Shown here: positions 252 through 31,503 of the stretch, in pieces
How the letters are laid out: every line of letters starts with the position of its first letter
Position numbering within the stretch: the first letter of the stretch is position 1
DNA from: Phycisphaeraceae bacterium
GTDB taxonomy: Bacteria > Planctomycetota > Phycisphaerae > Phycisphaerales > Phycisphaeraceae
Length of the DNA stretch: 64,000 nucleotides
NCBI GenBank assembly: GCA_029260615.1
Contig: JAJDCX010000016.1
Coordinates: 1,464 to 65,463, forward strand
Reading direction: 5' to 3'
Program-made: the position numbers and the translations under genes
The notes under the pieces: generated by a model
The model's input: only the letters and a program-made list of their open reading frames with translations
What the model was told of the DNA's origin: nothing
Databases searched by the model: none

Positions 252-668
252 ATGACACATGTACGCATCAAGATGCTGATCGCCGGGCTGGTCCTGATCG
301 CCTCCGTGAGCTACCTGGCGGTCGCCGGGGTCAAGAGCGGCTGGGTCTACTACCTGCATGTGGACGACTTCGTGCAGGACAGCACCTATCAGGACCGGCG
401 GGTCAGGCTCTTCGGCCTCGTTGACACCGAGAATGTCGAAGTCGCCCCAGCCATGCTGACCGCGAAGTTCGACCTGCAAGGCGAAAGCAACAGCATCCCC
501 ATCCACTACCAGGGCGTCGTCCCCGACACCTTCAAGCCAGGCGGCGAGGTCATGGTCGAGGGCAAGCTCGACGACGCCGGCATCTTCCAGGCAGACACCC
601 TGATGACCAAGTGTGCCAGCAAGTACCAATCCGAAGAACATGCCAAGCGGCTGGAGGAAGCCCAATGA
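252..668 (+). CDS. ccmE: Cytochrome c maturation heme chaperone CcmE, cysteine-type (CxxxY) variant
   Basis: 138 aa. N-terminal membrane anchor (LIAGLVLIASVSYLAVAG), then CcmE-like OB-fold segments (RVRLFGLV, GVVPDTFKPGGEVMVEGKL). The C-terminal heme-attachment motif reads KCASKY (Cys codon TGT 612-614, Tyr 624-626), where classical CcmE has HxxxY. AAGGGA box at 240-245. Stop overlaps the ccmF start (ATGA 665-668). Confidence 0.85.
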   Translation: MTHVRIKMLIAGLVLIASVSYLAVAGVKSGWVYYLHVDDFVQDSTYQDRRVRLFGLVDTENVEVAPAMLTAKFDLQGESNSIPIHYQGVVPDTFKPGGEVMVEGKLDDAGIFQADTLMTKCASKYQSEEHAKRLEEAQ

Positions 669-2791
669 ACGGTTTAATCGGCAACCTGAGCCTGGCGGTG
701 GCTGTGCTGACAGCAGCCGGGGCGCTATTTACCGCAGTCGCAGCGGCAAAGTTTCAAGACGACCGGATGCTTCGATGGTCCCGCCGACTGCTCTATCTGA
801 TGGGTTTGGCCATCACGGTCGGGTCTGCGGCGCTGATGTCGGCGATGGTTAATAGCGACTTCCACAACGCCTACGTCGCCAGCTACACCGAACGCGCGCT
901 GCCGATGGGTTACAAGATCGCCGCCTTCTGGGCTGGTCAGGAGGGCAGCCTGATGCTCTGGACGCTGCTGCTGGTGGGTATGACCGCCATCGCGGCGCAC
1001 GGGTTCCGCAACCGTGAGCGCATCGAACAGTCCGCGATGCTCGGTGTACTGGCGCTGGTCTGTGGGTTCTTCTCGGCGTTGATGCTGTTCGCCGCCAATC
1101 CGTTCGTGCAGCTACCCGCACAGGCGGTCGATGGCCACGGCCTGAACCCGCTGCTTCAAGACCCGTACATGATCGCGCACCCGCCGCTGCTGTTCGTTGG
1201 TTATGCCGGGTACACGATCCCCTGGGCGATGCTGCTGGCGGCGCTGATCGCGGGGCGCAAGGACAATCAATGGATCGGCGCGACACGCAAGTGGCTGATG
1301 GTGTCCTGGCTTTTCCTGACCGTCGGGATCATCCTCGGTGCCAAGTGGGCGTACATTGAGTTGGGTTGGGGCGGTTACTGGGCGTGGGACCCGGTCGAGA
1401 ACGCATCACTATTGCCTTGGTTGACCGGTACCGCGCTGCTGCACTCGGTGATGGTCCAGCAGCACCGTGGGATGTTCAAGATCTGGAACGCATCCTTGAT
1501 CGCCGTCACCTTCCTGCTGTGCATTTTCGGGACGTATCTGACACGCAGCGGCGTCGTGCAGTCGGTTCACTCGTTTGGGGAGTCAGTGATCGGGACGTTC
1601 TTCCTGGTGTTCCTGGCCGTGTGTGTGCTGCTGAGCATCGTGGTGGTCGTCATCCGCCGGCAACTACTTAAAAGTGAAGACACCGTGCAGGGGATGATGA
1701 CCCGAGAGGGCGCGTTCATGGTGTTGAACGTGCTGCTGGTATTGATGACGCTGGCCACGCTGGTCGGGACGATCTTCCCGCTGATTAGTGGTGCGGTGAT
1801 GCCCCAGCCCGTGACGGTTGGCGCGGCGTTTTACAACAAGGTCGTGATCCCGCTGTCGCTGGTTCTGTTGGCTGTGATGTCGGTCGGTCCGTTGCTGAGT
1901 TACGGCAAGGGTGCGGGGCAACAGTTAATCAAGAGCCTGATTGTGCCGGGCATCGCGGCGGCGATCTCGGTAGTTGTGGCTTTGGCACTTGGCATGACGG
2001 ACCTGTGGGCGTTGGCCTGCACAGTCATCACGGTCGTCGCGGTTTGCAGCGTCGGTGTCGGGTTGACCCGCAGCGTCCGGCAACGTCGTAAGATCGAAGA
2101 CGAGGGCCCGTTGACCGCTACCCTCCGAGTCATTGATGCCAACCACCGCCGGTACGGCGGGCAGTTCGTCCACATGGGCGTGGTCATGCTGATGGTCGGC
2201 GTCGCCGGCTCGAGCCTGTTCGGTGTCAAGCAAACCTTCCAACTCGCGCCGGGTGAATCGGCCGGTTTCAATGACGAATACACCATCACCTTCGGTGGGC
2301 TGAATCAAACCCGCCAGTCCAATTACACCTCGGTCGAGGCGCATGTGACACTGACGACGTTGGGCGAAACCGGGGATACCGGGGGGACCGGGGGAGCGGG
2401 GCAGACTTTGCACCCTGAGATGCGATTCTACGACAAGTCCGAACAGCCCAGCGCCCAGGTCGCGTTGAACTCGTCGCTTTCGCGCGATGCCTATGTGACG
2501 CTCGCCGGCTGGGAAGACGACGGCCAACTGGTAGCCCTGCAAGTCATCGTCAACCCCCTGATCGCATGGATCTGGATAGGCGGGATCGTTATGACACTGG
2601 GCGCGATATTCTCACTGCTCCCGAGGTTGGTCAAAGCTACCGCCCGCGCCGGCTGCCCAGCCACGGCGGCTAAAGATCAACCTCATGCCCACGCACCGGC
2701 CACGGTCTCCCTGGGGCTCGCCGGGGAGGGCCGATGCGAATCACAAATCCAAACCACAACCACCACGCAATACGCGGAGGCCCCGAAATGA
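665..2791 (+). CDS. ccmF: Cytochrome c-type biogenesis protein CcmF (heme lyase component)
   Basis: 708 aa polytopic membrane protein with the WWD heme-handling motif WGGYWAWDPVENASLLPWL. I chose the ATG at 665 that overlaps the ccmE stop; the ORF-track start at 611 would overlap ccmE by 58 nt. Confidence 0.9.
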   Translation: MNGLIGNLSLAVAVLTAAGALFTAVAAAKFQDDRMLRWSRRLLYLMGLAITVGSAALMSAMVNSDFHNAYVASYTERALPMGYKIAAFWAGQEGSLMLWTLLLVGMTAIAAHGFRNRERIEQSAMLGVLALVCGFFSALMLFAANPFVQLPAQAVDGHGLNPLLQDPYMIAHPPLLFVGYAGYTIPWAMLLAALIAGRKDNQWIGATRKWLMVSWLFLTVGIILGAKWAYIELGWGGYWAWDPVENASLLPWLTGTALLHSVMVQQHRGMFKIWNASLIAVTFLLCIFGTYLTRSGVVQSVHSFGESVIGTFFLVFLAVCVLLSIVVVVIRRQLLKSEDTVQGMMTREGAFMVLNVLLVLMTLATLVGTIFPLISGAVMPQPVTVGAAFYNKVVIPLSLVLLAVMSVGPLLSYGKGAGQQLIKSLIVPGIAAAISVVVALALGMTDLWALACTVITVVAVCSVGVGLTRSVRQRRKIEDEGPLTATLRVIDANHRRYGGQFVHMGVVMLMVGVAGSSLFGVKQTFQLAPGESAGFNDEYTITFGGLNQTRQSNYTSVEAHVTLTTLGETGDTGGTGGAGQTLHPEMRFYDKSEQPSAQVALNSSLSRDAYVTLAGWEDDGQLVALQVIVNPLIAWIWIGGIVMTLGAIFSLLPRLVKATARAGCPATAAKDQPHAHAPATVSLGLAGEGRCESQIQTTTTTQYAEAPK

Positions 2792-4020
2792 AACGCTTGG
2801 TATCCCTGATAGCAACGATTGCCGCTGTGTCTATTTTTACCGTGTCGATGACATTCGCCGCCCCTGCCACGCAGCCTGCCGATCAGGCACAGGCACAAGT
2901 CGCCCCTGCCACGCAACCGGCCGACGCGGCGATGCCGCAAGGCCATCCCGATATTCCCGAAGGTCATGCCGAGATGCCAGCGGGCCCTGCAGGGATGCCG
3001 GGGCACGCGCCCGGCACCAGTGCATTGGGTTCGATCGCCGTGAAGGTGACACAAGGCACACAAGATGGCCCAGCGATCTCGGGCGGCCGTGCGGTTATCC
3101 GCCTCTATGAGCAGGGCCGTTTGATACACACGATGCATACCGAACTGGATGCTACGGGCATGGCGATCCTCGAGGGGATCCCGCTGGGCTCGGTGATCCA
3201 GCCGGTGGTTGCCTACGAGTACGCCGGTGCGACGTATGAATCTATCGGCCAACCGATGGGGCCCAGCGACCCGGACCGGCTTATCAAATTGAAGGTCTAC
3301 GAGACAACCGACGTCGAGCCGCAGTGGCGGATCGCGATGCGGCATGTGATGGCCAAGCGGATGGATAAGCACCTGCACATCACCGAGGTGTGGGCCATCA
3401 ACAACCCGGACGACCGCAGCTATGTCGGTGTGGTCGATAAGTCTCATGAGTCACACGACCACGCGAAGGTTGAGGATGCACACAATCAGGGCCGTACTAC
3501 TTTGACGCTCCCGTTGCCTGCTGGTGCGATGCACGTCCAGCCCGGCAGTGGGTTCAGTGCCTGCTGTGTCCGTGTCGAAGGCGGGCGGATCATCAACACG
3601 ATGCCGCTGCTGCCTGGCGCTACCGAGTTCCGGGTGGACTACCTGCTGCCAAATGAAGACGGCTCGTTTAACCTGGCGCTGACAACCCCCGCGGCGACGG
3701 ACCACCTGATGATCTTTCTCCCAGACGATGGATCGCAAGTCACCGCGCAGGGCTTGGAGACCGGCGACCCGTTTAAGGCTGGGGAACAACAGTTCAGGAT
3801 GTACAGCGCTAAGCAACTAGAGGCCGGTGCGGCTATGAGCCTGGTGATCGAGGTTGGCCAGGCGGTGATGGAAAGCATCACGGGTGCGGCGGGCCCCACG
3901 TCACAGGCCGACACGATCAAGATGATCGCCGGCGGGGGCGCGGGGTTGCTCGTGCTGGCGGGGACGTTTGTGCTGCTTAAGCCCGCAAAAAGAACCCGGC
4001 CAGACGGTGCGGCTGCTTGA
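2788..4020 (+). CDS. Uncharacterised secreted, C-terminally anchored protein embedded in the ccm operon (Met/His-rich N-terminal tract)
   Basis: 410 aa from the ATG at 2788, which overlaps the ccmF stop (ATGA). Signal peptide MKRLVSLIATIAAVSIFTVSMTFA, duplicated PATQPAD, tract MPQGHPDIPEGHAEMPAGPAGMPGH (2932-3006). C-terminal TM helix GGGAGLLVLAGTFVLL followed by KPAKRTR. No CxxC, CxxCH or TPR motif seen. Confidence 0.7.
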   Translation: MKRLVSLIATIAAVSIFTVSMTFAAPATQPADQAQAQVAPATQPADAAMPQGHPDIPEGHAEMPAGPAGMPGHAPGTSALGSIAVKVTQGTQDGPAISGGRAVIRLYEQGRLIHTMHTELDATGMAILEGIPLGSVIQPVVAYEYAGATYESIGQPMGPSDPDRLIKLKVYETTDVEPQWRIAMRHVMAKRMDKHLHITEVWAINNPDDRSYVGVVDKSHESHDHAKVEDAHNQGRTTLTLPLPAGAMHVQPGSGFSACCVRVEGGRIINTMPLLPGATEFRVDYLLPNEDGSFNLALTTPAATDHLMIFLPDDGSQVTAQGLETGDPFKAGEQQFRMYSAKQLEAGAAMSLVIEVGQAVMESITGAAGPTSQADTIKMIAGGGAGLLVLAGTFVLLKPAKRTRPDGAAA

Positions 4021-4040: not shown

Positions 4041-4802
4041 ATGACCGACGTGTCCGCGATTACCGCTGAATCCATCATGCCCCTAGCCGACGCCGTAGCC
4101 GATACGGTAAGCCCGGCTGTGCGGATGCGCGGGCTGAGCAAACGCTACGACGAGCGGTGGGTGCTGCGCGATATCACGCTGGATGTGCCGACGGGGTCGT
4201 ACCTGGCGCTGCTGGGTGCTAACGGCGCGGGCAAGAGTACGCTGCTACACACGCTTGCGATGCTAAGCCCGGCGACCCGTGGCGAGCTGAGTCTGTTCGG
4301 TGAGTCTGCGACCCGGCCCAGCCCCACGCTGCGTGCCAGGCTCGGGATGATCGGGCACCAGCCGATGCTCTACCGTGACCTTTCGGCGGTCGAAAACCTG
4401 GTCTTCTTTGGGAAGTTGTATGGCGTGTCGCGTCCAAAGCAAAGGGCGATAGACATGCTCGAGCGAGTCGGGTTGGCCGACCGTGCTCAAAGTGTTGTCA
4501 AGACGTTCAGCAGGGGGATGGTGCAGCGGTTGTCGATCGCACGGGCGTTGATGCACGCGCCGGAGCTGCTGCTGGCAGATGAGCCTTTCTCGGGACTCGA
4601 CGTTCCATCGGTGCAGGCGGTGTCGGCTTTGCTTGCCGAACTACACGCCGATGGGAAGACCGTGATCCTCACCAACCACGACGTGCGTCAGAGTCTTGAG
4701 CTCGCGCAGCGCGTCGTGGTTCTGGGGCGCGGCCGTGTTGTCTCGGATCGGCCGGTGCGTGACGCCGATGTGGATGACGTGACCCGGGAGGTGATCGGAT
4801 GA
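4041..4802 (+). CDS. ccmA: Heme exporter ATP-binding protein CcmA (ABC ATPase)
   Basis: Walker A GANGAGKST, ABC signature FSRGMVQRLSIARAL, Walker B LLLADEP. Operon context. Stop overlaps the ccmB start (ATGA 4799-4802). Start is uncertain; alternative in-frame ATGs at 4077 and 4125. Confidence 0.85.
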   Translation: MTDVSAITAESIMPLADAVADTVSPAVRMRGLSKRYDERWVLRDITLDVPTGSYLALLGANGAGKSTLLHTLAMLSPATRGELSLFGESATRPSPTLRARLGMIGHQPMLYRDLSAVENLVFFGKLYGVSRPKQRAIDMLERVGLADRAQSVVKTFSRGMVQRLSIARALMHAPELLLADEPFSGLDVPSVQAVSALLAELHADGKTVILTNHDVRQSLELAQRVVVLGRGRVVSDRPVRDADVDDVTREVIG

Positions 4803-5476
4803 CCCAGGTGCTGCGACAGATCGTGTTGCTTAGCGGCAAGGACCTGCGTATCGAGGCACGCAGCCGACAGACGCTGGGGCTGGTCGCGGTGCTGGGCGTG
4901 TTGATCGTGGTGGTGTTGGGTCTGGGTTTAGGCCCCGAGCGGGTGAAGTCGGGGATGGCGGCGACGGCTGTGTTGTGGGTGGCGTACCTGTTCGGCGGGG
5001 TGTTGTGCTTCGAGAAGACGATGGCGGTCGAGCGTCACGACGGGGCCTTGGCAGGATTGATGCTGGCGCCGATTGACCGGGGCGTGATTTATGCGGGCAA
5101 GCTCTTAAGCAACTTGACGCTGATGTTGGCGCTGGCGTTGATCGTTACGCCGGTGGCGGTGGTGATGTTTGGTTTTGACTTATCAGCCGCGCCGTTTGGG
5201 TTTGCGGCGATCATGGCGGGTGGTTTTGTCGGGTTCGCGGCGATCGGGACGCTGTTCGCTGCGGCGGTCAGTTCGACGCGTTCGCAGGGGGGGCTGCTGG
5301 CGATCGTGGTGTTCCCGGTGTCGCTGCCGTTGGTGATCGTATCGACGCAGATGATGATGAGATTGTTCGGTGAGGGCGAGCCGTTGGGCGCAGTAGGCCT
5401 GACGGTGTTGATCGCGTTTGATGCGGTCTACCTGGTTGTGAGCTGGCTGGTGTTTGAGCTGATCCTTGAACCCTGA
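4799..5476 (+). CDS. ccmB: Heme exporter permease CcmB
   Basis: 225 aa, about 6 TM helices, lies between ccmA and ccmC. The FEKTMAVERHDGALAGLMLAP segment resembles the conserved CcmB N-terminal box. Confidence 0.8.
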   Translation: MTQVLRQIVLLSGKDLRIEARSRQTLGLVAVLGVLIVVVLGLGLGPERVKSGMAATAVLWVAYLFGGVLCFEKTMAVERHDGALAGLMLAPIDRGVIYAGKLLSNLTLMLALALIVTPVAVVMFGFDLSAAPFGFAAIMAGGFVGFAAIGTLFAAAVSSTRSQGGLLAIVVFPVSLPLVIVSTQMMMRLFGEGEPLGAVGLTVLIAFDAVYLVVSWLVFELILEP

Positions 5477-6192
5477 TGAGGCGGATTATGAACACGGTGA
5501 AATCAAAATTGTGCATGGCGTACTGGCTGGTGACGGCGTCGCTGTTTGCCGGGGCGGTTGTGATGGTATTTGTCTGGACGCCTACCGAACAGACGATGGG
5601 CGTGGTGCAGAAGATCTTTTACCTGCATCTTCCGGTGGCGATCAACACATTTGCGGCGTGCATGGTCACGTTCATCGCCAGCATCGGCTACCTCTGGCAG
5701 CGGCGTCAGGTCTGGGACGACCTGGCGGTTTCGTCGGCGAAGGTCGCGGTGCTGTTGTGCAGCATCGTGTTGTTAACCGGGATGATCTGGGGTCACAGCG
5801 CCTGGGGTCAGTGGTGGACGTGGAGCCCGCGGCTGACGTTTAGCCTGGTGCTTTGGCTGCTTTATGTTGCTTACCTGGTGATCCGTCCGTCGATCGAGTC
5901 GCGTCAGCGAAGGGCGTTGGTCAGTGCGGTGTACGGGGTGGTGGCGTTTCTTGATGTGCCGTTGGTGTACCTGTCGGTCAAGCTGATGCCGGATATCCAC
6001 CCGTCGTCGATCGGGCTGGCCCCCGAGATGAAGACGACGCTGCTGTTCTGCTTCTTGCCGGTGACGATGCTGGCGGTTGGCCTGATCGCGGCGCGGTACC
6101 GACTGCAGCGGGCTGAAACACTATCAATGCAAGAAGCGGAGGACCCGCCGCTTGACACGATCGCGGCCGACCCCGCGGGAGGATTCACATGA
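5476..6192 (+). CDS. ccmC: Heme exporter protein CcmC
   Basis: 238 aa membrane protein with a WWD-type motif WGHSAWGQWWTWSPRLT. Start overlaps the ccmB stop by 1 nt (TGATG). Alternative start at 5488. Confidence 0.85.
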   Translation: MRRIMNTVKSKLCMAYWLVTASLFAGAVVMVFVWTPTEQTMGVVQKIFYLHLPVAINTFAACMVTFIASIGYLWQRRQVWDDLAVSSAKVAVLLCSIVLLTGMIWGHSAWGQWWTWSPRLTFSLVLWLLYVAYLVIRPSIESRQRRALVSAVYGVVAFLDVPLVYLSVKLMPDIHPSSIGLAPEMKTTLLFCFLPVTMLAVGLIAARYRLQRAETLSMQEAEDPPLDTIAADPAGGFT

Positions 6193-6341
6193 GCCCGACC
6201 ACCCACGCTATCGCCGCCTACGTTGTCACGATCCTGCTGCTGTGGGGTTATGCCGTGACATTGTGGCTGTCAGTCCGCCGACAGAGAAACAATAACCAAG
6301 ACACGCCGGGGACAATCGGCGAGGGGAGTGACCTGTCATGA
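6189..6341 (+). CDS. ccmD: CcmD-like small membrane protein (50 aa, not in the ORF track)
   Basis: Hand translation: MSPTTHAIAAYVVTILLLWGYAVTLWLSVRRQRNNNQDTPGTIGEGSDLS. One TM helix followed by a basic stretch, as in CcmD. The ATG overlaps the ccmC stop (ATGA 6189-6192) and the stop overlaps the hemA ATG (ATGA 6338-6341). Confidence 0.65.
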   Translation: MSPTTHAIAAYVVTILLLWGYAVTLWLSVRRQRNNNQDTPGTIGEGSDLS

Positions 6342-7597
6342 CGATCATGCTGATTGGTTTGAATCACCGGACGGCACCTGTTGATATCCGTGAGCAGTTG
6401 GCTTTCAGTGCCGAGGGCGTTTCTACTGCGCTGATGCTGTTGCGCAACCAGTACCCTGGCTGCGAGGCGGCGATCCTGTCGACGTGCAACCGCGTTGAGG
6501 TCTTGACCGCAACCGAGCAGGATCACCCGACCGAGAACGAGATTATTTCATTCTTGGCGCAGGCCCGCGACCTCCCGGTGCCATCTTTTAAGCAGCACCT
6601 CTACCGGCTCAAAGACGAGCAGGCGGTGCGCCACCTGTTCCGCGTTGCGTCGAGCCTGGACTCGATGGTCGTGGGAGAAAACCAGATCGTCAGCCAGGTC
6701 AAGGCCGCCTTCGCGCAGGCAAGCGAGCAGGGGACGACCGGCCGACTGCTGAACCGTTTGTTCCACCAGGCTTTCACCGCCGCCAAGCGGGTTCATAGCG
6801 AGACCGAAGTGGGTCGGCGCAAGGTCTCCGTGCCGTCGGTCGCGGTGGATGTGGCCAAGAGTATCTTCAGCAACTTCGCCGACAAGCATGTCTTGATCGT
6901 CGGGGCCGGGGAGATGGCGCAGCTTGTCTGTCAGCACCTACGCCAGGCCGACGCCCGCAACTTCACGGTCACCAGCCGGACGCTGAACAACGCCCGCGTG
7001 CTTGCCGAGGCCTGCGATGGTTCGGCTGTGCCCTACGACCAACTGGATGAGCAGCTAGCCAATGCCGACATCGTGGTGACCGCGACCCGCTGTCCCAAGC
7101 CCATCATCACCCCCGAGCGGATCGAAGCGATCCAGAAGAAGCGTCGGCGTCGGCCGATGTTCCTGATTGACCTGGCGGTCCCTCGTAATGTTGATCCAAC
7201 GGCGGGAGATATGGACAGCGTGTATCTCTACGACATCGACGAGCTGGGGCGTATCGTGGCTGAAAACCAACGGCAACGGATGAACCAGGTTGACCGTTGT
7301 GAGAAGATTTTGGACGAAGAGATCGACGCCTTTGAGCGTTGGCTGGCGGAGAGCCGTGCCCGGCCACTGATCCAGCAACTCTACGAGGACGCACAGGTCG
7401 TCCACGACCGCGAGTTGGAGGACCTGTTCTCGGCCTGCTCGGGCTTGACGGATCAGCAGCGAGCCGCGATCCTTGCGGCGACCCAGCGGCTGGTCAATAA
7501 GTTCATGCATCCCTGTGCCTACGCGCTGAAGCGTCACAGCGGATCGGGAGCGTCCACCACGCTGGCCCAGACGCTGCACGACATCGCGCAGAAGTAA
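6338..7597 (+). CDS. hemA: Glutamyl-tRNA reductase
   Basis: 419 aa. N-terminus MTIMLIGLNHRTAPVDIREQLAF is the typical HemA signature. NADPH-binding VLIVGAGEMA. Confidence 0.9.
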   Translation: MTIMLIGLNHRTAPVDIREQLAFSAEGVSTALMLLRNQYPGCEAAILSTCNRVEVLTATEQDHPTENEIISFLAQARDLPVPSFKQHLYRLKDEQAVRHLFRVASSLDSMVVGENQIVSQVKAAFAQASEQGTTGRLLNRLFHQAFTAAKRVHSETEVGRRKVSVPSVAVDVAKSIFSNFADKHVLIVGAGEMAQLVCQHLRQADARNFTVTSRTLNNARVLAEACDGSAVPYDQLDEQLANADIVVTATRCPKPIITPERIEAIQKKRRRRPMFLIDLAVPRNVDPTAGDMDSVYLYDIDELGRIVAENQRQRMNQVDRCEKILDEEIDAFERWLAESRARPLIQQLYEDAQVVHDRELEDLFSACSGLTDQQRAAILAATQRLVNKFMHPCAYALKRHSGSGASTTLAQTLHDIAQK

Positions 7598-7617
7598 CTT
7601 TATATCGGAGCCGGTCA

Positions 7618-8652
7618 ATGAACCCGTCCGCGGAACCTGTTAGCCAAACTGTTTTAGATGAGTTGGACAAGCAGCTGCTCAATGGGATGCAGTTCGATTT
7701 CCCGTTGACGCAGTCGCCTTGGGAGACATTGGCGCAGGGCATGGGGCTCACCGGTGCGCAGGTTCTGTCGCGGGTTAAGAAGCTCAAGGAGACCGGGATC
7801 ATCCGGCAGATCTCGGCGATCTTCGACACCAAGGCGCTTGGGTATACCAGCACGCTCGCCGCTGCGCGGATCCCGGATGATCGGCTCGACGAGGCCGCGG
7901 CCGTGGTCAGCCAGCACCCCGGGGTTAGCCACAACTACAAGCGTGAGGCCGAGTTTAATCTATGGTTCACCCTGGCGGTTCCGCCGGGAGAGTCACTTGA
8001 TGAGCATATCAAACGGTTGGCCGAGGAAGCCCGGTTCGAGGACTACCTGGCTCTGCCGACGATCAAGACTTTCAGGATCGGTGTGAAGCTGGATGTCGGC
8101 GGTGATCGCTCGGCTAAGCAGGCAGATACCCCACCCGCTAAACACCAACACCGTAAGACGGAACCGGTTGCGCTGACCGAGGATGACCGCGCCTATATCC
8201 GTGCGTTGCAGGACGATTTGCCTTTGGTCGATCAACCTTTTGAACAGGCGTGTCTGGAACTGGGTATTGGGTTCGATGAGTTGAGGTTCTGGATGCAGAA
8301 GATGCAGGGGGCCGGTGTGTTGCGGCGCTTCGCAGCGATCCTGCGTCACCGCCAGGCCGGGTTCACCGCCAACGGCATGGTTGTCTGGCGTGTTGCCGAT
8401 GAACACATCGACCAGGCGGGCAAGTTGGCGGCACAGGCCCCGGAGGTAAGTCACTGCTACCAACGTCCTTGTTCGGAAGCTTGGCCCTACAACCTCTACA
8501 CCATGATCCACGCCCGCAGCGAGTCGGACTGCCAACGTGTCATCGACCACATCGCCGACGGCTTGGCCCCCTTGGGCATGACAGCCCACCGCACGCTCTA
8601 CAGCACCACCGAATACAAGAAGCAGCGCGTGCGATACTTCACACAAGACTGA
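7618..8652 (+). CDS. Fused siroheme decarboxylase, AhbA/AhbB (NirD/L/G/H-type, Lrp/AsnC-like) two-module protein
   Basis: 344 aa with two tandem modules. Module 1: LDELDKQLLNGMQFDFPL...GIIRQISAIFDTKALGY...HPGVSHNYKR. Module 2: DRAYIRALQDDLPLVDQPF...GVLRRFAAILRHRQAGF...APEVSHCYQR. This pattern is typical of Ahb/Nir decarboxylase subunits. Confidence 0.7.
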   Translation: MNPSAEPVSQTVLDELDKQLLNGMQFDFPLTQSPWETLAQGMGLTGAQVLSRVKKLKETGIIRQISAIFDTKALGYTSTLAAARIPDDRLDEAAAVVSQHPGVSHNYKREAEFNLWFTLAVPPGESLDEHIKRLAEEARFEDYLALPTIKTFRIGVKLDVGGDRSAKQADTPPAKHQHRKTEPVALTEDDRAYIRALQDDLPLVDQPFEQACLELGIGFDELRFWMQKMQGAGVLRRFAAILRHRQAGFTANGMVVWRVADEHIDQAGKLAAQAPEVSHCYQRPCSEAWPYNLYTMIHARSESDCQRVIDHIADGLAPLGMTAHRTLYSTTEYKKQRVRYFTQD

Positions 8653-29646: not shown

Positions 29647-31260
29647 TTAGTGGATGAATCGCATGTCGTCGAAGTTGGGGACGACGCGCATGCCTGTTTG
29701 GTTCCAGGCAAAGGGTGCGGGGAAGTAGACGAAGAAGGCCCGGCCCATCATGAGTTTGCCGGGGACGATGCCGTCGCGTGAGTTGTCATCCATCTCTTTA
29801 CCGAAGTATCGCTGGCGGACCCACAGGGCGCTTGGGCTGACATTTTCGCTGTTGTTTTTGATTGAGCCTGGGCTCCAGTACCGGCCATCATCGCTCAGGG
29901 GGTTGTTGTCGCCGATGCAGAAGAACTCATTGTCGTGAATCCGCATGGGGCGGATACGGCTTGCCAGGACGTTGCCCCGTGCGTCTCGGGCGAGGCCGCC
30001 TCGTGCGAGTGTTTGGTTGTTGTTGCTGGCGTAGTAGAGGTCGCGGTCCAGTTCCACGCGGTGGAGGGTGGCGGGGCCGCCGGACATGTTGATAGAGATG
30101 CTGGGCATCCTAAGTGGGCGGGGGCGGTTGATGAGTTGTTCGGAGGTGAGGTCGTCGGCGTAGAGGTATCGCAGTTCACGGCGGCCGTTGATCCAGATGC
30201 TCAGTTCCTGATCGACAGCCCAGAACTCGATGGGGGTGGACTGGCCGATCTTTAGGGCGGCGAGCTTGCGGCTCATGAGCTCGACGGGTTGGCCGGTCTC
30301 TGGGTCGTCTGCGGAGAGGGTGAGGGTGCCGTCGGCGTTGATCGTGGCGGTGACGGTCTGTGTTTCGTTTGTGAGTCGTGTCTGTGTGGAGAGGCTGATA
30401 GAGCTGTTGTCGGTCTCTGGCTGCAGGGCGACGGCCAGACGGATGTCTTCGATATCGTCGCTGAAGGCGGCTCGATCGTACTGGTTGTAGGGGTAGACTC
30501 CCGGCAGGGAGAAGTGGCTGCCTGGTCGGAAGTCAAAGGTGATTTGCCCGGGGTCGCCGCCTTGGTATTGGTAGCTGCGTCGGTTTTGAACGTCCCAATT
30601 GCCTGACTTAACGATCCAGGGGGTGGACCAGCGGTTTACGGCACTGCGTTCGCCTGGTCCCTTGAGGGCGCCGCCGTCCCGGGGGATGTACTGGCTGTGG
30701 TAGATGGGTTGCCAGACGGCCCGCTGGACCTTGGGCGAGTCGCTTTTGCGTGCGATGTTCCAGTTGGATTGGCCCTCGGGCTGCGTGTAGACATTGCCGT
30801 CCAGGAGTCTCAGGGACTCGTTGGGTAGGCCGACCAGGCGTTTGATGAAGTTGGTGTCGGGTATGTGTGGGGCCTTGAAGACCACCACGTCCCAGCGTCG
30901 AGGCTCGCTGAGGGTGTAGATGTACTTGTGCACGAGGATCCGGTCGCCGGGGAGTGGCCGTGCGTTTTTGGCCATGTCGATATCGTTGTGACACATGGGG
31001 CAGTCGGCCCCCCGGTTCCAGTTGTCTCTGGATTTGGTGTTGTAGTTGATCTTGAATTGGTAGCCGCACTGGTCACACTCGGCCCGGTAGTGTTCGCCTA
31101 AGAGGGTTGGGGCCATGGACCCGGTGGGGATGACAAAGGCCTCGACGACGTAGGCCCGGAAGACGAAGGCCAGGATGAAGGCGATGACGATGGACTCGAA
31201 GGTCTCTTTGATCGTCTCGTCGGGGGGCTGCTGTGCTGGGGCGGTGGTAGTTTGCTTCAC
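29647..31260 (-). CDS. lepB: Signal peptidase I (enlarged, with inserted CxxC...CxxC zinc ribbon)
   Basis: GTG start. TM helix, Ser box IPTGSMAPTLLG, Lys box FIKRLVGLPNE, C-terminal box FFCIGDNNPLSDDGRYW. CDQC...CPMC (nt 30991-31077) lies between the Ser box and box C. 537 aa. Confidence 0.85.
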   Translation of the reverse strand: MKQTTTAPAQQPPDETIKETFESIVIAFILAFVFRAYVVEAFVIPTGSMAPTLLGEHYRAECDQCGYQFKINYNTKSRDNWNRGADCPMCHNDIDMAKNARPLPGDRILVHKYIYTLSEPRRWDVVVFKAPHIPDTNFIKRLVGLPNESLRLLDGNVYTQPEGQSNWNIARKSDSPKVQRAVWQPIYHSQYIPRDGGALKGPGERSAVNRWSTPWIVKSGNWDVQNRRSYQYQGGDPGQITFDFRPGSHFSLPGVYPYNQYDRAAFSDDIEDIRLAVALQPETDNSSISLSTQTRLTNETQTVTATINADGTLTLSADDPETGQPVELMSRKLAALKIGQSTPIEFWAVDQELSIWINGRRELRYLYADDLTSEQLINRPRPLRMPSISINMSGGPATLHRVELDRDLYYASNNNQTLARGGLARDARGNVLASRIRPMRIHDNEFFCIGDNNPLSDDGRYWSPGSIKNNSENVSPSALWVRQRYFGKEMDDNSRDGIVPGKLMMGRAFFVYFPAPFAWNQTGMRVVPNFDDMRFIH

Positions 31261-31503
31261 AGGTGGGCTGGCCCTACTCTTTGTGCTTGAAATCGGCGGG
31301 TCTGAAAAGGTCCGCCGGGGCCGTACCCAGGCGTGGGTTGGGACGATTGTAACGGCATCTGTCGGGTGTTGCCGACGATGAAACCAGCACCGGGATACAC
31401 CCCCGGATGTTCCCAGATATATCTCCGGACACGCCCACAGGTTTTTCGGCTCACGGATGCAACGGCCTCCACACTACGGACCCATACGAGCAGAAGCAGA
31501 CCC

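Follow-up and report, generated by a model that had tools for sequence, protein, structure and literature searches.

What does an unnamed gene do that sits between ccmF and ccmA, where accessory proteins of cytochrome c maturation are usually encoded? The question is raised by a 64,000-nucleotide stretch of DNA from a Phycisphaeraceae bacterium (assembly GCA_029260615.1, contig JAJDCX010000016.1, positions 1,464 to 65,463; hereafter the window), in which an open reading frame (ORF) that we call X lies inside a System I cytochrome c maturation (ccm) operon with a cysteine-type (Cys-type) CcmE. Decades of work have described System I as CcmA to CcmI, and how its variants run with Cys-type CcmE and without CcmH and CcmI is a question raised in the literature. 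An archaeal study asks whether non-orthologous proteins replace CcmD, CcmH or CcmI (PMC9084895), and the release of the thioether-like bond between CcmE and heme has been posed as a question (PMC3601427). We conclude that X is probably a helper subunit of the cytochrome c maturation machinery, so far unrecognised. We give about even odds (a probability near 0.5) to the more specific reading that X is a CcmI-like accessory subunit of System I, built without tetratricopeptide repeats (TPRs), that would act at the CcmF heme-lyase step. The analyses below establish its topology, its fold class, its fixed operon position and, for Chloroflexota and a third lineage, its homology to proteins that are linked to ccm genes and have a CcmI-N-like tail. 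As a periplasmic protein of Phycisphaerae that is conserved, has no name and is locked into its operon, with homologs beside ccmF and ccmH in Chloroflexota and another lineage, X is a concrete candidate.

Gene X and its place in the ccm operon

X begins within the end of ccmF, where its ATG (2788-2790) overlaps the ccmF stop TGA (2789-2791) in a 4-nucleotide (nt) ATGA. Its own TGA (4018-4020) is followed after a gap of 20 nt by the ccmA ATG at 4041. The operon runs ccmE-ccmF-X-ccmA-ccmB-ccmC-ccmD-hemA with a start/stop overlap at nearly every junction. A scan for promoters and terminators detected nothing like a sigma-70 site, and the stretch from X to ccmA contained no terminator-like site on the plus strand. 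A first-pass annotation, made from the sequence alone, had described the 410-codon frame and both junctions, and the coordinates bear it out. X is a real gene: we rejected a chance ORF on the strength of 215 representative relatives at an expectation value (E) of 1e-30 or better and of a GC content that matches the neighbouring genes. Because that GC content is uniform with the neighbours (0.61-0.63), we also rejected a horizontally inserted island.

We compared the window with 23 independent related loci, 8 from GTDB genomes, 9 from JGI metagenomes and 6 from exact-protein look-ups; the genome and metagenome scans used one narrow pattern, and their 8 and 9 loci are not a census. The 8 GTDB loci are labelled Phycisphaerae, Phycisphaerales, Tepidisphaeraceae or Planctomycetota. 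At all 24 Phycisphaerae-type loci, wherever the flank was on the fragment, ccmF lay directly upstream and ccmA directly downstream of X, with identity of X to the window protein running from 54% down to 26%. The 4-nt ATGA overlap between ccmF and X is present in the window and in loci L002, L020, L026 and L027. Every one of the 16 related loci that include ccmE encodes the TKCASKY motif of the window CcmE. The complete genome CP070772 has an intact ccmF-X-ccmABC and no ccmE adjacent to it. The neighbourhood survey that the annotation had proposed therefore shows ccmF-X-ccmA recurring at the loci obtained, with all co-resident CcmE of the Cys type and homologs that are not mostly outside ccm contexts.

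The annotation had also remarked that CcmG, CcmH and CcmI are missing here. A scan for WCxxC and LRCxxC motifs and tblastn with Chloroflexota CcmH, CcmG and CcmI-N were likewise empty for all three across the 64-kb window. In the flanks (+/-7-9 kb) of the Phycisphaerae loci, the searches also gave no CcmH, CcmG or CcmI-N-like sequence.

The family to which X belongs is large, unnamed and undescribed. X of the window has no match in Pfam, NCBIfam (0 families at E<=1) or PDB sequences, and 49 diverse relatives have no Pfam match, TPR included. When a profile of these 49 was searched against the PDB, the best match was NohD (E 0.33), which we judged to be chance. When 1.84 billion representatives were scanned exhaustively with HMMER, 1063 clusters passed E<=1e-3, and 215 of these passed E<=1e-30; their proteins are mostly 350-450 amino acids long with the layout of X. 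Where sources name these relatives, they call them 'hypothetical protein' of Planctomycetota or Phycisphaerales, and the Chloroflexota relatives 'c-type cytochrome'. We found no describing paper for the X family, for LPxGHP repeat peptides or for the ccm genes of Planctomycetes or Phycisphaerae. The annotation was thus right to call the protein undescribed in the libraries we searched, and X is an undescribed family within a variant of a known system. With 1063 representative clusters, it deserves a name and a profile. In one 529-residue homolog (P0081), the X part is followed by CcmA-like ATPase sequence and, after that, by Arg/Pro-rich nonsense; a frameshift in the assembly or the gene call is a more probable cause than a true X-CcmA fusion.

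Relatives, fold and proposed role of X

The first hint of more distant relatives was a 635-residue 'mono/diheme cytochrome c' (P0018, E 1.5e-4), and a profile search then recovered a Chloroflexota family. These proteins consist of a lipoprotein signal, a cytochrome c domain with one invariant and one variable CxxCH, an X-like body, a transmembrane (TM) helix and a cytoplasmic helix of about 50 residues. Comparing the X and Chloroflexota families with hhalign gave a probability of 99.8% and an E of 7.6e-28 over 315 columns, TM helix included, so the Chloroflexota body and TM helix are homologous to those of X. Two of the five Chloroflexota loci read ccmE-ccmF-ccmH-ccmG-orf128-[cyt c-X']-ccmA-B-C-D, and in another a ccmA that passes the curated cutoff lies two small genes downstream. 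At locus L028 the CcmE (4738-5271) has KCPSRF, a Cys-type motif with Phe for Tyr, and the same operon encodes a CcmH with LYCPVC and a CcmG with WCGPC. Judged by these motifs, L028 is a Cys-type system that keeps its thiol-redox partners. Cys-type CcmE with Phe has already been noted for Chloroflexi in the review literature, and according to a review one third of bacteria with Cys-type CcmE keep CcmH.

The TM helix and tail of the Chloroflexota proteins resemble the N-terminus of CcmI. TIGR03142, the model for that region, matched 6 of 16 members below threshold (best E 9.3e-6); P0185 scored 23.8 bits and orf128 27.3 bits (E 3.6e-6) against a cutoff of 29.3. Two small ORFs, orf128 (128 amino acids, L028:8587-8973) and orf107 (107 amino acids, L032:3246-3569), each encode one TM and a cytoplasmic helix and stand between ccmH/ccmG and the X-like gene. 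By eye, orf107 has the same helix motif as the CcmI-N-like ORF, and the two look like stand-alone 'CcmI-1' fragments. The X-like protein that follows orf107 represents a third lineage (P0243), with signal peptide, body, TM helix and CcmI-like tail, and with neither cytochrome nor repeats. Its locus reads ccmF-ccmH-orf107-P0243 and has no ccmABC in the vicinity. The X-type module is thereby tied to the lyase half of the system (CcmF/H/I) and not to the exporter half.

How is the protein built? A full-length AlphaFold2 (AF2) model of the window protein shows a disordered linker (residues 12-76), an all-beta body (77-357), a disordered hinge and a helix (373-396). When the body was modelled by itself from a deeper alignment, the predicted local distance difference test (pLDDT) score was 94.4 and the predicted template modelling score (pTM) 0.86, indicating that the body is one compact unit. 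The signal peptide, the duplicated PATQPAD (residues 26-32 and 40-46; nt 2863-2883 and 2905-2925), the C-terminal TM helix and the basic tail that the annotation had pointed out are all found in the translation or the model. Its statement that X has no CxxC, CxxCH or TPR agrees with our scan of the translation and with Pfam. In some homologs a lipobox Cys replaces the plain signal peptide. Relatives P0243 and P0197 have weak PF13620 (CarboxypepD_reg) matches in domain 1, below cutoff, and window X has none. Domain 1 (residues ~72-169) has been lost in frame from the subclade nearest to the window, whose CcmA is 78-91% identical (L004:7001-8032, L011:2817-3608, P0005-P0009), and is therefore dispensable.

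Profile and structure searches gave no confident match to an unrelated family. The best Foldseek match in the PDB was Ost1/ribophorin I (probability 1.0, E ~3e-8). Next came the N-terminal beta domain of M1 aminopeptidases, which aligned with domains 2-3 over ~210-220 columns at a root-mean-square deviation of ~5 A. Going by the models, both matches are architectural resemblance and not family membership.

Conservation was measured on 151 full-length members. A C-terminal hydrophobic stretch is present in 95% of them. The near-invariant residues of the body are mostly Pro and Gly, with Q89, T91, W180, H186, D209 and Y285, and of the near-invariant residues only T91, D209-R210 and Y285 are kept in the Chloroflexota relatives. 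No catalytic-looking site is conserved across the X and Chloroflexota families, whose common residues are mostly Pro, Gly and turn motifs. Neither X nor any other Phycisphaerae-type member has CxxCH, which occurs only in the Chloroflexota fusion relatives. Two proteins carry tandem beta bodies before a single C-terminal TM helix, two in P0021 (635 amino acids) and three in P0019 (915 amino acids), as would fit a binding module.

We favor the CcmI-like reading because of the operon position, the translational coupling, the homology to ccm-linked proteins with CcmI-N tails and the lack of an enzyme-like conserved site. X would be exported via its signal peptide, and the conserved C-terminal TM helix (K378, G384) would tether it to the inner membrane, probably packing against CcmF. 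It would present its rigid three-part beta-sandwich body and its flexible His-Pro tail in the periplasm. There X may serve as a docking or chaperone module, with putative binding of apocytochrome, CcmE or heme, and would keep apocytochrome c, holo-CcmE or both in place at the active site of CcmF.

Several observations weigh against the CcmI-like reading. Window X itself has no TIGR03142 or TPR match and a tail of only 14 residues, and all CcmI-tail matches in its relatives are below the curated cutoff. Some clades do without domain 1, and some without the His repeats. The fold matches are weak, with template modelling scores (TM-scores) of 0.30-0.42 and 9% identity, and the Ost1 analogy is architectural only. 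Two of the five Chloroflexota loci encode the relative without ccm neighbours, and X is the fastest-evolving gene of the cluster, at 54% identity in L002 compared with 82-92% for the ccm genes.

The last two of these points, together with the tolerated domain loss and tandem duplication and the multiheme cytochrome genes that often flank the operon, would suit a generic membrane-anchored periplasmic scaffold or cytochrome stalk. X would then be a client or neighbour of the pathway and not a maturation factor, and the Chloroflexota form merely a membrane-anchored cytochrome c. However, the exact slot between ccmF and ccmA, with its start/stop overlap, is kept down to 26% identity, linkage to ccmF or ccmH recurs in three separate lineages, and some relatives carry the CcmI-N-like tail. 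We consider such a scaffold decidedly unlikely.

The place of X in the operon also bears on a thiol-redox role, since the annotation had assigned X to the slot usually held by CcmG, CcmH or CcmI. The only cysteines of window X are a vicinal pair, C259-C260, which that annotation had not mentioned, and through this pair X might act as a thiol-disulfide oxidoreductase in place of CcmH or CcmG. Neither CcmH nor CcmG was found in the window or in the Phycisphaerae loci examined; the pair is present in 60% of members, and its WCC form is conserved in one subfamily. However, the pair is absent from the other 40%, 15 of the 151 members have no Cys at all, and P0004, which is 54% identical to window X and sits in the same ccmF-ccmA slot, has GG where the window has CC. 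X has no CxxC motif and neither a thioredoxin nor a CcmH fold, and in Chloroflexota the module coexists with CcmH and CcmG. We rejected the thiol-redox role, which is highly improbable, because of the Cys-less members, the GG ortholog and the coexistence with CcmH and CcmG. Of the annotation's proposal, the part that concerns CcmI, an apocytochrome-handling role, fits better than the part that concerns CcmG and CcmH.

Histidine-proline repeats and neighbouring genes

Between the signal peptide and the body, window X contains MPQGHPDIPEGHAEMPAGPAGMPGH (residues 49-73, nt 2932-3006), in which MPQGHP, IPEGHA and MPGH repeat and three Met-Pro and three Gly-His pairs fall within 25 residues. The annotation had located this tract correctly and taken it for a Met/His-rich soft-metal or heme-iron ligand region. 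Across 232 units the consensus is LPxGHP[PD][ILV], with P, G, H and P as the fixed positions. Leu takes the first position in 84% of units and Met in 15%, so what looks Met/His-rich in the window is a local variant of a His-Pro repeat. At least one [LMIVF]PxGH[PA] unit occurs in 77% of the 151 members, at least two in 58% and none in 23%. The soft-metal tract was therefore not upheld as a family feature.

If X were a periplasmic copper or soft-metal chaperone, the Met-Pro and Gly-His pairs of the window tract and a His/acid-rich loop in the closest clade would be its ligands. The low frequency of Met at the first repeat position speaks against this, as does Met within 8 residues after GHP in 36% of units versus ~24% expected from composition. 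No CopC, CusF or PCuAC-type match was found in Pfam or NCBIfam, and the operon partners are all heme-related. Lacking family-wide support, a copper chaperone is scarcely credible, and we rejected it. The loop itself, VVDKSHESHDHAKVEDAHNQ (residues 216-233, window 3433-3486, plus strand), is a second His/acid-rich element in a low-confidence loop inside the body. It is limited to the closest clade, for example GHGHTQDAQAHE in P0020 and DEHDEHDEHGEEDPH in P0022.

Could the repeats handle heme instead? In a heme relay, the histidines of [L/M]PxGHP would bind heme iron transiently and move heme from Cys-type holo-CcmE to CcmF or the apocytochrome, with the body only an anchor; the idea partly overlaps the CcmI-like reading. 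The prevalence of the repeats and the fixed P, G, H and P are in line with it, and every X-linked CcmE seen is of the Cys type. Scanning the window and 32 loci (~450 kb) turned up LPxGHP in several copies in just one protein besides X. This protein is NTF2-like, and at both loci found with it (L020 and L027) X is without repeats. In the Chloroflexota relatives, the N-terminal position equivalent to the repeats is held by a genuine cytochrome c domain with its invariant CxxCH. The distribution of the repeats hints at a heme-related role of the tail. On the other side, 23% of members are without repeats, L026 has neither repeats in X nor an NTF2-like gene nearby, the repeat region is disordered (pLDDT <50), and there is no match to a known heme-binding family. 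A His-Pro repeat could instead coordinate Zn, Ni or Cu, or it could serve as a docking peptide. We regard the relay as unlikely.

The other repeat protein is secreted and 220-267 residues long; in it, 1-4 LPxGHP repeats precede a domain with weak likeness to NTF2/SnoaL. Its gene directly follows ccmC-ccmD at L020 (11491-12153) and L027 (12633-13436); the L020 and L027 proteins share 40% identity, and neither has a Pfam match above cutoff.

A broader proposal joins the tail to the body, and we put it forward tentatively, as a possibility that we rather doubt. X may be a hitherto overlooked System I component, a beta-sandwich protein with a single TM helix that is non-orthologous to CcmH and CcmI, recruited to CcmF in at least three lineages with Cys-type CcmE. 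The His repeats or the fused cytochrome c would then take part directly in handing over heme from an unusually stable, Cys-linked holo-CcmE.

The features of X and the operon are collected in Table 1. The 50-residue probable ccmD was omitted from the gene list of the first-pass annotation. The ORF itself (6189-6341) has no Pfam match, and its counterpart in L023 matches PF04995 (CcmD) with E 7e-4, below cutoff.

Table 1. Gene X, its parts and the neighbouring ccm genes, in window positions.
Feature	Position	Strand	Basis
ccmE, Cys-type heme chaperone, …LMTKCASKYQ… (CxxxY)	252..668	+	PF03100, E 4.5e-26; motif in translation
ccmF, heme lyase; ATG overlaps ccmE stop, TGA overlaps X ATG	665..2791	+	PF01578 and PF16327, E 1e-56; TIGR00353
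X, unnamed Ccm-operon protein, subject of this study	2788..4020	+	ORF, 410 amino acids
X: predicted signal peptide, residues 1-24, MKRLVSLIATIAAVSIFTVSMTFA, hydrophobic	2788..2859	+	sequence; AF2 helix 3-20; cleavage site inferred
X: disordered Pro-rich linker, residues 25-76, two PATQPAD and His repeats	2860..3015	+	pLDDT <50 over residues 12-76
X: beta-sandwich domain 1, residues 79-170, QGT at 89-91, carboxypeptidase-regulatory-like	3022..3297	+	AF2; weak PF13620 in relatives
X: beta domains 2-3, residues 181-355; conserved core W180-x3-MRH186, NPxDR206-210, C259-C260, invariant Y285	3328..3852	+	alignments; AF2 pLDDT >90; Foldseek
X: C-terminal TM helix, residues 373-396, conserved K378 and G384 (KxIAGxGA…)	3904..3975	+	AF2 helix 373-396; hydrophobicity; hhalign
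X: short basic cytoplasmic tail, KPAKRTRPDGAAA, 14 residues	3976..4017	+	sequence; without the CcmI-like helix of Chloroflexota relatives
ccmA, ABC ATPase	4041..4802	+	PF00005; NF010061 and TIGR01189 matches below cutoff
ccmB	4799..5476	+	PF03379, E 5e-26
ccmC	5476..6192	+	PF01578; TIGR01191
probable ccmD, 50-residue single-TM ORF (MSPTTHAIAAYVVTILLLWGYAVTLWLSVRRQR…), overlaps ccmC stop and hemA start	6189..6341	+	slot; L023 counterpart
hemA, glutamyl-tRNA reductase, translationally coupled to the ccm genes	6338..7597	+	orthologs; tblastn

Orthologs of hemA in L001, L002 and L023 carry GlutR_N, Shikimate_DH and GlutR_dimer, with tblastn identities of 57-96%. Directly after the ccm genes of the window (6338-8652, plus strand) come hemA and a fused NirD/L-like gene of the AhbA/B type, siroheme decarboxylase-like, so heme synthesis by an alternative route and heme attachment appear to be co-transcribed. 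L002, L004, L010 and L023 share this arrangement of hemA and the NirD/L-like gene. Multiheme cytochrome genes (Paired_CXXCH_1 or Cytochrome_C7-type) and genes for NHL-repeat proteins often lie just upstream of ccmE, as in L002, L020, L023 and L027. Elsewhere in the window, a 608-residue ORF (29650-31473, minus strand) has a single CPMCH motif and, by the motif scan, may be a c-type cytochrome.

Comparison with known systems

Ost1/ribophorin I is a lumenal subunit of the eukaryotic oligosaccharyltransferase. Like X, it has exported beta-sandwich domains and after them one C-terminal TM helix, and it neighbours a polytopic enzyme whose substrates are unfolded secreted chains. However, X has no Pfam Ribophorin_I match, and the two belong to different pathways and domains of life; the likeness is an analogy of architecture. 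M1 aminopeptidases differ in their peptidase domain and zinc motif, both of which X lacks. CcmH and CcmG are periplasmic, membrane-anchored Ccm accessory proteins usually encoded beside ccmF. Unlike CcmH, a three-helix bundle with LRCxxC, X is all-beta, with no CxxC, no PF03918 match and no conserved Cys, and unlike CcmG it has no WCxxC and no thioredoxin-like Pfam match.

CcmI, also called CycH, corresponds to the C-terminal half of E. coli CcmH and has a paralog in NrfG. X shares with it the proposed design of a membrane-anchored CcmF partner with a large periplasmic module, and X relatives in Chloroflexota and P0243 have the below-threshold TIGR03142 tail and lie beside a small CcmI-N-like gene. 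The periplasmic module of X, however, is an all-beta sandwich and not TPR, and the topology is reversed: X has a signal peptide, body and one C-terminal TM helix, whereas CcmI is built as TM1-loop-TM2-TPR. According to reviews, CcmI is the apocytochrome-handling partner in CcmFHI, and in the variant called System I* it enhances maturation but is not required.

System I* of Desulfovibrio, ccmEFABC(D), whose operon content we inferred from reviews and from D. vulgaris locus tags, resembles the Phycisphaerae operons in its Cys-type CcmE, in the order E-F-…-A-B-C-(D) and in a cluster without ccmH or ccmG. The Desulfovibrio operon is functional in E. coli (PMC3601427). Between ccmF (DVU1050) and ccmB (DVU1048) of D. 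vulgaris there is one locus tag, presumably ccmA, and X is accordingly an insertion relative to Desulfovibrio. A ccmI gene between ccmF and ccmA in Desulfovibrio was not borne out. The annotation had called X a candidate accessory factor of the Cys-type CcmE pathway. Although Cys-type CcmE in general does not require X, as D. vulgaris shows, X remains a strong candidate for such a factor, embedded among ccm genes whose linked CcmE are all of the Cys type. Where Desulfovibrio has ccmEFABC(D), the Phycisphaerae operons insert X and couple hemA and an ahbAB-like gene downstream.

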